Source of the DNA: Dehalococcoidia bacterium
Lineage (GTDB): Bacteria; Chloroflexota; Dehalococcoidia; Lucifugimonadales; UBA3495
Direction: 5' to 3'
Length of the DNA: 64,000 nucleotides
NCBI GenBank assembly: GCA_965237745.1
Contig: OZ250156.1
Span: 3,553,426-3,617,425 of the forward strand
Shown here: positions 2,763 through 5,638 of the stretch, piece after piece
Layout of the letters: each line of letters starts with the position of its first letter
Position numbering within the stretch: position 1 is the stretch's first letter
Made by a program: the position numbers and the translations under genes
The notes under the pieces: generated by a model
Database searches by the model: none
Told to the model about the DNA's origin: nothing
Seen by the model: the letters and a program-made list of their open reading frames with translations, nothing else

Positions 2763-3332
2763 ATGACGACCACAGCTTACACAGTTGATGAATTCATCGA
2801 CGACGTTCGCGAGATTTTTGACGCGACGCAGGACCCGCTGGCCCAGGCCAAGGGCGTGTCCGAGAAGATGGAAGTGCTGCTGCAGACCCCAGGCTGGCTG
2901 GAGGAGCGGCTGGAGTTGCCGGACGAGGGCGGGTACGGGCGATACGACCTGCACCTGGACGAGGACTACGGGCATCCGGGCGGCGGTTTCTGGCTGATGG
3001 CCTCGGTTCAGAAACCCGACCAAGACAACCTGCCCCACGACCACGGCGCGGCCTGGGTGGTCTACGGCGTGTACGATGGCGCGATCAAGCAGACCAAGTT
3101 CCGGTGGTACTACCCGGGCGAGGGTGTGGACTCGGTGCAGATCAAGGAGACCGGCGATTTCGTGCAGAAGGACGGCAAGGTGGCCTTCTTCCTGCCGGGC
3201 GAAATCCACAACACGCTGAACGTCACGGGCGACCGGGCGCTGGTGGTGCGGCTGGAGTCGCAGAAGCTGGACCGGGTGATCCGCTACCAGTACAACCCGG
3301 AGGAAGGGACGGTCAGGGTGATGGAGCAGTAG
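2763..3332 (+). CDS. Cupin-fold protein (cysteine-dioxygenase-like metal site)
   Basis: 189-aa ORF with a His-rich cupin-like segment (LPHDHGAAWVVYGV ... GEIHNT). GGAG-type RBS upstream, coding-like composition, followed by a hairpin terminator. Confidence 0.6.
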   Translation: MTTTAYTVDEFIDDVREIFDATQDPLAQAKGVSEKMEVLLQTPGWLEERLELPDEGGYGRYDLHLDEDYGHPGGGFWLMASVQKPDQDNLPHDHGAAWVVYGVYDGAIKQTKFRWYYPGEGVDSVQIKETGDFVQKDGKVAFFLPGEIHNTLNVTGDRALVVRLESQKLDRVIRYQYNPEEGTVRVMEQ

Positions 3333-3378
3333 GTTCTGCACACGCCCGGCCGTTCGCGGCCAACACGGTTAGACGCGG

Positions 3379-3413
3379 AGACGCCCCTCGCGATTGCGGG
3401 GGGCGTTTCTTTC
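3379..3413. terminator. Intrinsic terminator-like hairpin between convergent genes
   Basis: Stem ACGCCCC (3381-3387) pairs with GGGGCGT (3400-3406), 10-12 nt loop, followed by TTTCTTTC. It marks the switch from GC-rich to AT-richer DNA. Confidence 0.6.
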
Positions 3414-3456
3414 GTGGGTGGTTAGAACACTTTTCCAAGGACCCAAAAATAAGGTG

Positions 3457-3927
3457 CTACTCACTTTTTCGGCATAGCTCTTTATTGCCAAGCAATCGTT
3501 TATGTCCCTTCGTAAATTCCTTGTCCGCATTTGTCGAGAAAATTTTACCTCGTGGATTGTCAATCAGCGTTTTACTCTTAAAGTCTCGATGCAATTTCAT
3601 ATCATTTGAATAAAGTAATCTAGCACCACTAACCTGTGCCAAAGCAATTACATGTGGGTCATCTGATCGGCACATTCCAACTTCCTTTAATTGCTGAGTT
3701 AACGAGATAACAGAATCCTGATTTTCTGTTCTTAATCTCCCTGCCAATCGGGCAGCTTGGGACCATTGCTTAAAATCGGATAGTTTTTGGAGCTCTTCAA
3801 GCAGCCTTCCGCCTACCACTAGCCGACCTTGTCCTCTATTTATCCATTCGAGAAACTTTGCACCGGCCGAACCCTGGTCAGAACTAAACACCTCACTAGC
3901 AGTATTTGCGTCTATAATGGCGCACAT
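3457..3927 (-). CDS. PIN-like (DUF4411-like) putative nuclease, second gene of the low-GC ATPase module
   Basis: N-terminal MCAIIDAN (PIN-type first acidic residue). Central CRSDDPHVIALAQVSGARLLYSND resembles the ADPWLIA-type motif of DUF4411/PIN-like domains. Overlaps the upstream ATPase gene by 16 nt. Confidence 0.55.
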   Translation of the reverse strand: MCAIIDANTASEVFSSDQGSAGAKFLEWINRGQGRLVVGGRLLEELQKLSDFKQWSQAARLAGRLRTENQDSVISLTQQLKEVGMCRSDDPHVIALAQVSGARLLYSNDMKLHRDFKSKTLIDNPRGKIFSTNADKEFTKGHKRLLGNKELCRKSE

Positions 3928-5288
3928 TTCTTAGTCGTTGGGCTGCCGATAATTTTTCCACACCTGGAGGTCTCCTCCATGAAAAAACTGCGATAACCGT
4001 CGGGCGCTCCCAACACGTTTCCTTCTTCGTCAATTTCGAGGGAATGGATCTTGACGTCTAGATCGTTACGTTCAAAAAAGAGGATGGAGACATCGGATGG
4101 CTTCAATCCAGCAACACCGTCACGTACATCCATACGCACTCTATCAAGCAAATGGTCACTGTGGGTTTCGACTACAAGCTGACGCTCCGGACCGGCGATT
4201 TGGCACAACAGGCTTCCTAGAGCGGCCTGGGCACTTGGATGAAGGTGAACCTCCGGTTGTTGGAGCAAGCTCATCGGAGATACATCATCTCGCAGTAACT
4301 CAGTTACTATAGGCAAGACTTGGCTAACGCCGTATCCCACATCGATTAGGTTTCGGGGAGGGCCTTTTCGCTTTCCGCTAAATTTTCTAACCTGCACTTG
4401 AAAAGGTTCGCTATCTCTCTTGCCCAACCGTTTGATTGATATTTCGTCAAATAGGCCGGAACTTTTTCCGTATGTTTCAAGCAGACACTTAAGAGTTTCC
4501 CACTGTGCCTCGTCCTGTGCAACTAGATTAGCTAGATACATTGGGACATAGTCCCCTTCAGGATCAGGAGTGGGGCGGGATGGGTCGTACGTACGTTTGG
4601 GCTTTGAACGCACCGGGGCTCCGGCAAATACCTTTGTCTCGCGATGGAAATGTTCAAACCCGGTGGCAGAAAGAGTCCTGATATTACTCAAGTCGTCTGG
4701 ACCCAAGTCTGGCGAGCCCTCTAGAGGTTCAATAAGAATATCCTCGTCCTCCCGCAACTTGCCTGAAAGCAGCCTTGCAGCCAAGACCGGAGCCCACATC
4801 TTTTCATCATAAGCGTCGAACCAGACTACAGATTCAGCAGGGACAATTCCTTTCCATGTCCCATTGCGAGTCCCTACTTGGATAAGAAAGGGACTACCTG
4901 TCGAATAAAGTTCCTCTATCCAAATATCTTCGAAAGCGCGGTACCTTCGAATCGGAATCGGCGCGGTCCCGCTCTTCTTGAAGGTGACTTCATAGCGATA
5001 TGGGCGAATGCGGGAACCCTTCTTGATATCAAGGCAAAACCCCGCCTCAAAGGAATCCGTTCGGCGATCCCGATAGTGGACAATTTCGTCAAAGCTCCCC
5101 AAATCATATGGGGCCTCTTTGAAATCCGGCAGTTTAATGGAAAATGCGACATCCCATAGGGCTTTCAATAAGGCTAAGAATGAAGTTTTACCTGTGCTAT
5201 TCTCACCCACAAGAAGTGTCAGCGGAGCTAACCTAGCGCTTTGTTTATCATGAAAACAACGAAAATCTTTGAGGGTTATTTCGTTCAT
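3912..5288 (-). CDS. ABC/SMC-type AAA ATPase (AAA_15/AAA_21-like with DUF3696-like C-terminus)
   Basis: Walker A LLVGENSTGKTSFL. Walker B/D-loop LLQQPEVHLHPSAQ. H-loop VVETHSDHLLDRV. Clearly AT-richer than the flanking DNA. Confidence 0.8.
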   Translation of the reverse strand: MNEITLKDFRCFHDKQSARLAPLTLLVGENSTGKTSFLALLKALWDVAFSIKLPDFKEAPYDLGSFDEIVHYRDRRTDSFEAGFCLDIKKGSRIRPYRYEVTFKKSGTAPIPIRRYRAFEDIWIEELYSTGSPFLIQVGTRNGTWKGIVPAESVVWFDAYDEKMWAPVLAARLLSGKLREDEDILIEPLEGSPDLGPDDLSNIRTLSATGFEHFHRETKVFAGAPVRSKPKRTYDPSRPTPDPEGDYVPMYLANLVAQDEAQWETLKCLLETYGKSSGLFDEISIKRLGKRDSEPFQVQVRKFSGKRKGPPRNLIDVGYGVSQVLPIVTELLRDDVSPMSLLQQPEVHLHPSAQAALGSLLCQIAGPERQLVVETHSDHLLDRVRMDVRDGVAGLKPSDVSILFFERNDLDVKIHSLEIDEEGNVLGAPDGYRSFFMEETSRCGKIIGSPTTKKCAPL

Positions 5289-5300
5289 GGCCGCCTTCTG

Positions 5301-5329
5301 TATATGGAACTAAGATGCCAATCTGTCAA
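5301..5329 (-). promoter_or_regulatory. Possible sigma70-like promoter for the ATPase/PIN module
   Basis: On the minus strand, TTGACA (5329-5324), a 17-nt spacer, then CATATA (5306-5301), followed by AAGGCGG and the ATG at 5288. Pattern match only. Confidence 0.25.
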
Positions 5330-5392
5330 TTCTACAATATACAATGCTAGGATCCCCGTCTGAACAGGAGCGCCGGGACTAGGACGATGGTA

Positions 5393-5638
5393 TCAAGAAC
5401 CAGGCGCAATTGGCCCGCCACCTCTTCGTGCCCAGGCAACAGCGTCGGCCAAGTCTGCCTCCGTTATTCCCATTTCTGCCAGCTTGTCCCGAACCGCCTC
5501 GATTGACGTTCTGCGCACTGAGGTTAGGACGAGGCAACCGTCCCGCTCCTCTATATCAAGGTACTCGACGCCGTGGAGGGCCAGGGCCACCTCGTCGGGG
5601 ATGGTTATCTGGTTTGGCCCGGTCATTTTTGCCCGCAT
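5393..5638 (-). CDS. AbrB/SpoVT (MazE/VapB-like) antitoxin-type DNA-binding protein, no cognate toxin adjacent
   Basis: ITIPDEVALAL looped-hinge-helix-type motif in an 81-aa protein. High-GC composition, unlike the downstream ATPase island. Confidence 0.6.
   Translation of the reverse strand: MRAKMTGPNQITIPDEVALALHGVEYLDIEERDGCLVLTSVRRTSIEAVRDKLAEMGITEADLADAVAWARRGGGPIAPGS

Follow-up and report, generated by a model that had tools for sequence, protein, structure and literature searches.

The stretch of DNA analysed here (64,000 nucleotides of contig OZ250156.1 from a Dehalococcoidia bacterium, hereafter the window) carries on its minus strand, at positions 3457-5288, a gene for an ABC-type ATPase followed by a gene for a small PIN-domain protein, and the question raised by this locus is whether these two genes make up an antiviral system and, if so, whether that system is of a new kind. 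We think, with a probability of about 0.65, that they form a self-contained, mobile two-gene immunity module, in which an ABC ATPase that ends in a DUF3696 tail is paired with a PIN nuclease. This is not a new kind of system: the pair is a divergent, currently undetected relative of HEC-03 and of the NsnB-NsnC core of Menshen. The defence role is one that we infer from homology with HEC-03 and NsnB, from the architecture of the pair and from its signature of mobility.

Both open reading frames (ORFs), of 458 and 156 residues, have the limits that an initial annotation of this DNA had given them (Table 1), and the motifs on which it relied are all there, GENSTGKTS, QQPEVHLHP and ETHSDHLLDRV in the longer frame and IIDAN, DDPHVIALA and SND in the shorter one. 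The larger protein had been assigned to the AAA_15/AAA_21 type of ATPases with a DUF3696-like tail, and Pfam upholds this assignment (AAA_21, 2e-18; AAA_15, 1e-17; DUF3696, 5.6e-6). Among the defence models of PADLOC its best match is NsnB (9.8e-46, residues 1-432), followed by PDC-M55A (6e-32), HEC-03B (1.4e-30) and AriA (1e-20), while the models for PtuA, GajA and OLD match it only locally; its closest sequence families are thus all defence ATPases. The AlphaFold2 (AF2) model, with a pLDDT score (predicted local distance difference test) of 77, has as Foldseek neighbours the heads of Rad50 and SMC proteins, GajA, OLD and PtuA. One of the SMC heads, 5H68, is the top structural neighbour given for NsnB in the Menshen paper (PMC12065111).

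The Walker A motif (GENSTGKTS), the signature (GYGVSQ), the H-loop (ETHSDH) and the Walker B motif (LLQQPE) are invariant in 26 homologs of the ATPase, the last of them with Gln-Gln in place of Asp-Glu. In ABC ATPases, a change of the catalytic Glu to Gln stops hydrolysis and still permits ATP-driven dimerisation. Since the Walker B Asp-Glu is invariantly Gln-Gln here, this ATPase probably acts as a switch that binds ATP and hydrolyses little or none of it, and not as a hydrolysing motor. The same position is Glu-Gln in the HEC-03 ATPase and Glu-Asn in NsnB, for which a GxG variant of the ABC signature has also been reported (PMC12065111). An insert at residues 76-220 varies much more than the ATPase core, with majority-residue frequencies of 0.39-0.55 against 0.81-0.87, and the AF2 model places strands at residues 79-149.

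The partner gene had been thought to encode a nuclease fold of the PIN/DUF4411 type. Taken alone, the window protein reaches only 0.032 against Pfam PIN_3; when 27 members of its family are compared with Pfam, 19 have PIN matches (the best at 2e-6) and four match DUF4411. Fold modelling, by which the initial annotation proposed to check this point, came out in its favour: the AF2 model (pLDDT 90.8; predicted template modelling score, pTM, 0.87) finds its best PDB neighbours by Foldseek in VapC toxins (VapC2 3zvk, FitB and several VapCs of Mycobacterium tuberculosis), AF1683, Nob1 and Utp24, and the predicted fold of the protein is VapC-like. Searching PDB sequences with the profile of the PIN family brought up chance matches only. 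All of 27 close homologs share four acidic residues, D6, E45, D90 and D109, which are also kept in 135, 138, 139 and 135, respectively, of 139 full-length sequences, each representing a cluster at 50% identity; on these alignments the window protein is classed as an active-type PIN with an intact catalytic D-E-D-D tetrad. Across the same diverse representatives C2, H92 and C152 are nearly invariant as well, which is not the case of H142; these Cys and His residues may constitute a metal site or a disulfide. The PIN family of HEC-03 has conserved residues of its own, C23, C27, C150 and H153.

That the two genes belong together is plain from their relatives. When 185,579 species-representative genomes were scanned with a profile, at least 572 PIN matches were confirmed, of which the best 80 loci were analysed. 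In 79 of them the PIN gene directly follows the ATPase gene on the same strand, and the remaining locus ends at a contig edge, so that the co-occurrence of homolog pairs, which had been put forward as a check, is what one sees. A more distant PIN representative is likewise preceded by an AAA_15/AAA_21 ATPase of 450 residues. Clustering of all flanking ORFs in the 80 loci revealed no third conserved gene family, and the pairwise identities of ATPase and PIN are correlated (r 0.64; Mantel 0/999). The ATPase and the PIN protein are a real unit, a pair whose members diverge together.

The closest precedent for such a unit is HEC-03 (Hma-embedded candidate 03; Payne et al., bioRxiv 10.1101/2024.01.29.577857). 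In E. coli, the Pseudomonas cichorii version cuts plaque formation by orders of magnitude, with both genes required, and is toxic on induction (bioRxiv 10.1101/2024.01.29.577857). HEC-03 consists of a gene for a 461-residue "DUF3696 domain-containing protein" followed, with an overlap of 14 nucleotides, by one for a VapC-like PIN protein of 157 residues, and PADLOC has models for both (HEC-03A for the PIN, PDLC04147; HEC-03B for the ATPase). The window pair has the same order on the same strand, with proteins of the same kind and of nearly the same size. The ATPases are homologous (28% identity, E 2e-22 by BLASTP to WP_025259138, in addition to the HEC-03B match) and share the motifs GxGVSQVLP, QPE(V/I)HLHPS and E(T/S)HS(D/E)HLL, and the acidic positions of the PIN proteins align in register. 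The combination of ATPase and PIN, which the initial annotation did not recognise as a named system, is thus not without a name, since HEC-03 is a validated system with the same pairing and Menshen joins the same class of ATPase to a PIN-fold N-terminal domain.

There are also differences from HEC-03. The Walker B position is QQ in the window family and EQ in HEC-03, genes of the window family are usually separated by three nucleotides whereas those of HEC-03 overlap, the hosts are uncultured lineages here and Pseudomonas or Burkholderia there, the window pair lies outside any Hma system, and NsnB outscores HEC-03B on the window ATPase. The PIN protein belongs to a separate, large sequence family. 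The HEC-03A model finds none of 27 members of this family (window protein included) up to E 10, although it gives 2e-67 to 9e-86 with true HEC-03 PIN proteins; a distant family member, P0505, is not matched either. Profile-profile comparison of the PIN with HEC-03 yields E 0.005 with a probability of 7%, and with more diverse PIN profiles E becomes 3.5e-4 and the probability 37%, over 114 columns in which the four acidic positions line up. By these comparisons the window PIN would be at best a remote relative of the HEC-03 PIN. As to identity with a named system, the window pair therefore agrees with HEC-03 in architecture and in its ATPase, while its PIN falls outside the HEC-03A model, and the transfer of function from HEC-03 goes mainly through the ATPase and the shared architecture. 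PADLOC (version 2.0.0) would not call the pair, and it gives no match for the window PIN; it is blind to the module because none of its models covers the PIN half.

Menshen (NsnABC; Millman et al. 2022; Li et al. NAR 2025, PMC12065111) is the other obvious term of comparison. Here the resemblance lies in the ATPase, for which NsnB is the best defence model over nearly its full length, in the ABC head, the DUF3696 tail, the deviant Walker B and the GxG signature that it has in common with NsnB, and in a downstream partner gene with a PIN fold. The differences are the following: no NsnA gene (ParB-DUF262 plus ParBDB) is found upstream of the window pair, the partner is a PIN-only protein of 156 residues with no C-terminal toxin domain, its catalytic tetrad is retained while the PIN domains of NsnC, devoid of catalytic residues, are inactive adaptors (PMC12065111), and the ATPase is about 110 residues longer than the 345-position NsnB profile. 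A full Menshen system is ruled out by the missing NsnA and toxin domain. One could still imagine a degenerate Menshen, which would have lost NsnA and the toxin domain of NsnC and kept an inert NsnB with an inactive PIN adaptor; the strength of the NsnB match speaks for this idea, as do the PIN fold of NsnC N-terminal domains and the domain losses reported in Menshen (PMC12065111). We consider it very unlikely, however. An ORF with the DUF262-type motif DGQQR occurs in just one of the 80 loci (L064, 1079-2203, some 2.4 kb upstream of the ATPase), and conservation does not extend to any third gene; the two-gene form makes up a large conserved family of its own (1,875 clusters at 50% identity); the D-E-D-D residues, absent from the PIN domains of Menshen, are kept in 135-139 of 139 representatives; and ATPase and PIN are both clearly constrained.

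More generally, the design of an ABC ATPase with a small nuclease, which the initial annotation had likened to that of Septu and PARIS, is upheld: both systems encode such a nuclease downstream of such an ATPase, and PtuA of Septu, like GajA, is a structural neighbour of the window ATPase. Their effectors differ, being HNH (PtuB) and Toprim/DUF4435 (AriB) proteins and not PIN proteins, neither system has a DUF3696 tail, and the ATPase similarity is confined to the P-loop and C-terminal motifs (AriA, 1e-20, partial; PtuA, 8e-11). With the NCBIfam PtuA model the window ATPase scores 28.8 bits against a cut-off of 500. Septu, PARIS and AbiL were ruled out on these grounds, partial similarity of the ATPase and the wrong type of partner.

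What speaks for mobility is the spread of the family and its base composition. The 80 loci, all in metagenome-assembled genomes (MAGs) and 50-60% identical to the query, come from lineages that number well over ten at the phylum level and carry the labels Latescibacterota, Dehalococcoidia and other Chloroflexota, Gemmatimonadota, Acidobacteriota, Alpha- and Gammaproteobacteria, Nitrospirales, Nitrospinota, Binatia, Entotheonella, Opitutales, Rhodothermales and Spirochaetia; several record names (Poriferihabitaceae, Porisulfidus, Entotheonella and the SB06xx, RHO and APA bins) suggest that the hosts in question may be sponge symbionts. In the window, the module has a G+C content of 0.472 against 0.615 in the remainder (0.41-0.51 across 3400-5400, with flanks at 0.60-0.68), a contrast already seen in the initial annotation and read there as a sign of horizontal acquisition. 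The relatives bear this out: in 75 of 76 loci the module is poorer in G+C than its flanks, the mean difference being 7.7 points. Judging from this composition, the module is horizontally acquired and mobile.

This distribution also bears on the idea that an SMC/Rad50-like ATPase and a PIN nuclease might serve a housekeeping function in RNA processing or DNA repair. Rad50 and SMC heads are indeed structural neighbours of the ATPase, and Nob1, Utp24 and PIN domains of the RNase P type are found among the Foldseek matches of the PIN, but the ATPase has no coiled coil, its nearest sequence families are all defence ATPases, and a sporadic occurrence, several copies per genome and an atypical G+C content do not fit such a role, to which we give hardly any credence.

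Several observations weigh against the reading of the pair as an immunity module. Of the five AF2 models of the PIN, a single one is confident, and the TM-scores of its Foldseek neighbours are modest (0.45-0.54). The HEC-03 PIN model misses the window PIN, and the similarity of the profiles is weak. No member of the PIN family was found by tblastn in collections of plasmids and phages, nor by a pattern scan of IMG/VR contigs. The neighbourhood offers little help, most of the genes beyond a single methylase-side patch being metabolic (the neighbours in the window include an 81-residue ORF and hydantoinase B). Finally, the C-terminal tail of the ATPase is frameshifted in the window, so that this particular copy may be impaired.

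The last point deserves some explanation. The initial annotation had noted an overlap of 16 nucleotides between the two genes, which is present in the window and is peculiar to it. The public ENA contig ERZ26167216 (ctg495892, 4.81 Mb) shows no mismatch with the window over 13.9 kb apart from one deletion of four nucleotides, AAGG on the plus strand, which are absent from the window between 3961 and 3962. In the public contig the ATPase has 453 residues, ends in ...EETSRSLWKNYRQPND and stops three nucleotides before the ATG of the PIN gene; in the window it has 458 residues, its tail is shifted to ...SRCGKIIGSPTTKKCAPL and its stop lies 16 nucleotides inside the PIN gene. The overlap thus arises from the deletion and is not a feature of the family, in which the commonest spacing from ATPase stop to PIN ATG is three nucleotides (35 of 68 relatives; range -1 to 23) and the ATPases terminate R-S-L-W-K.

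Could the window copy then be non-functional, the deletion having altered the end of the DUF3696 tail and placed the ATPase stop within the PIN gene, with loss of PIN regulation or of translational coupling? In favour of this view, the deletion is the sole difference between the window and the public contig, the frameshift replaces S443 and the following L-W-K, which are conserved in ATPase homologs, and the usual three-nucleotide gap has become an overlap. We nevertheless hold it to be improbable. Just the last 11 residues of the 453-residue protein (S443 onward) are changed, the stretch from S443 is the least conserved segment of the ATPase (0.27) and has low pLDDT, both ORFs stay intact, and the four missing nucleotides could equally be a difference of assembly or version.

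The absence from plasmids and phages has another side, which concerns the possibility that the pair is an addiction module of the toxin-antitoxin sort. In such a module a VapC-type PIN toxin would be kept in check by an ATPase acting as a mere antitoxin or chaperone, and the pair would stabilise mobile DNA or impose dormancy under stress without any sensing of phage. The window PIN does share with VapBC toxins its predicted VapC-like fold and its D-E-D-D tetrad, and the Foldseek resemblance to VapC toxins, the toxicity of induced HEC-03, the patchy distribution and the low G+C content would all be accounted for. Yet what precedes the PIN gene is a 458-residue ATPase and not a small DNA-binding antitoxin, and an ABC ATPase of some 450 residues with a variable insert far exceeds the known VapB-type antitoxins in size; the related HEC-03 pair protects against phage with both its genes required; and addiction modules are common on plasmids and phages, where the family was not found. 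This explanation appears to us unlikely. The orphan AbrB/VapB-like antitoxin gene that had been suggested directly upstream does not change the picture: for the 81-residue ORF in question (5393-5638, minus strand), neither Pfam, NCBIfam and PADLOC nor the PDB sequences gave a SpoVT/AbrB match, the DNA around it is high in G+C and not part of the island, and no homolog of it stands beside the pair in any of the 80 loci. A VapBC system with this ORF as antitoxin was therefore discarded.

If the pair is an immunity module, as we think, its mode of action may be imagined as follows. The ATPase would form ATP-dependent head-to-head dimers or tetramers, whose variable insert (residues 76-220) may recognise a phage-derived trigger, and the DUF3696 tails would hold the PIN protein in check. 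A contact of this type is suggested by analogy with AlphaFold 3 models of NsnB4-NsnC2, in which the PIN-fold domain sits between two DUF3696 tails, and with the solved PtuA-PtuB and AriA-AriB complexes, in which an ATPase dimer holds one nuclease subunit (PMC12065111). A trigger-induced change of nucleotide state would then release or activate the PIN, which would act as a Mg2+-dependent VapC-like RNase on an essential RNA (tRNA, rRNA or mRNA), and the cleavage of that RNA would stop growth and phage replication alike, that is, lead to abortive infection.

Table 1. Positions of the features of the ATPase-PIN module and its borders in the window
Feature	Position	Strand	Basis or remark
GC-rich hairpin with U-tract	3374..3416	+	Folding against shuffles; outside the module; marks the low-G+C boundary
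Stand-alone PIN-domain protein, 156 residues, predicted metal-dependent ribonuclease effector	3457..3927	-	AF2, Foldseek, Pfam on relatives
Span of the four PIN acidic residues	3601..3912	-	D6 3910-3912, E45 3793-3795, D90 3658-3660, D109 3601-3603
ABC-type ATPase (SMC/Rad50-like head) with DUF3696 C-terminal tail	3912..5288	-	Pfam, PADLOC, AF2/Foldseek
Frameshifted C-terminal tail of the ATPase (CGKIIGSPTTKKCAPL, then stop)	3912..3962	-	4-nucleotide deletion; creates the 16-nucleotide overlap
DUF3696 match, residues 395-431	3996..4106	-	Pfam; terminal helix 430-447 follows
H-loop region ETHSDH	4152..4169	-	Homolog alignment
Deviant Walker B LLQQPE	4251..4268	-	QQ replaces Asp-Glu; invariant in 26 aligned homologs
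Signature-like motif (G)YGVSQV	4317..4334	-	Corresponds to the GxG signature variant of NsnB
Variable beta-rich insert, residues 76-220, proposed sensor region	4629..5063	-	Conservation and AF2
Walker A GENSTGKTS, residues 28-36	5181..5207	-	Invariant in the family
Upstream intergenic region	5289..5392	-	One sigma-70-like match and a ribosome-binding site

Around the module, the hairpin terminator of the initial annotation is a real structure (folding energy -32.2 kcal/mol, z -4.25, with none of 200 shuffled sequences equally stable). Its U-rich tail lies 3' of the hairpin on the plus strand, so it is taken as the terminator of the convergent plus-strand gene 2763-3332. Even at a permissive threshold, Pfam gives no match for this gene, an ORF of 189 residues situated between the module and a BNR-repeat gene. 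On the other side of the module, a ribosome-binding site, GAAGGCGG, precedes the ATPase ATG, and a sigma-70-like sequence (TTCAGA-17-TATATT, 5364 to 5336) is a match to the consensus only, the number of such matches being no greater than expected from shuffles. An Rfam search of the window gave no match, and a search of the flanks for repeats, direct or inverted, such as an insertion might leave behind, brought only short, chance-level matches.

The idea of a defence-island context drew on the supposed antitoxin ORF and on a methyltransferase with an NPPW motif in the vicinity; this methyltransferase is genuine (5-1432 in the window; Eco57I, 4.7e-14, and N6_Mtase) and in the public contig is a protein of 731 residues of the MmeI/Eco57I type. 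Past this methylase, where the public contig extends beyond the start of the window (L081, 12496-19301), there are a transposase (DDE_5/DDE_Tnp_1) and a DUF4145 protein. Mobile or defence-like genes thus form a small patch on the methylase side; with metabolic genes making up the rest, the argument from context is weak.

Among the relatives, some loci depart from the simple pair. A MAG of Rhodothermales has two ATPase-PIN pairs in tandem (L070, 2512-4295 and 4678-6453), and one of Latescibacterota has two pairs about 2.7 Mb apart on contig CBDETK010000013.1 (L001 and L077). In another locus (L083, 5001-5840) a complete PIN domain and an N-terminal fragment of AAA_15 type share one ORF of 279 residues, which looks like a decayed locus from which most of the ATPase has been deleted. 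An apparent read-through from ATPase to PIN in L016 turned out to be a frameshifted ORF and not a fusion. A gene of about 920 residues (start MTLDPWYRVVTLRKEVREGRSF...) is common to the surroundings of the pair in nine loci (including L007, 8439-9053), and a second AAA_21-like ATPase lies directly downstream of the pair in seven; the surroundings of some copies may therefore be richer in defence genes.

What the finding means depends on the assignment. We consider it of moderate importance, on account of the size of the family, its phylogenetic spread and the Gln-Gln Walker B. Should the assignment hold, PADLOC overlooks a module that counts at least 1,875 PIN clusters at 50% identity (E <= 1e-3; 226 clusters at E <= 1e-30) and more than 570 matches in species representatives, and adding this family would change the defence inventories of uncultured lineages, including those of apparent sponge-symbiont MAGs. 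The comparison with Menshen, where an inactive PIN adaptor is combined with a toxin, and the intact stand-alone PIN found here suggest a route by which a nuclease effector may have become a docking domain. The invariant Gln-Gln Walker B suggests that this clade signals through ATP binding, and it poses the question whether DUF3696 ATPases may signal by ATP binding alone. One may go further and see in the family a separate branch of ATPase-PIN immunity, very abundant, missed by current tools and spread by horizontal transfer through many phyla of uncultured bacteria, with a natural "EQ-type" ATPase in which binding and dimerisation give the signal without hydrolysis; this we regard as doubtful at present, but if it were true, the control logic of such an ATPase would differ from that of Septu, PARIS and Gabija.

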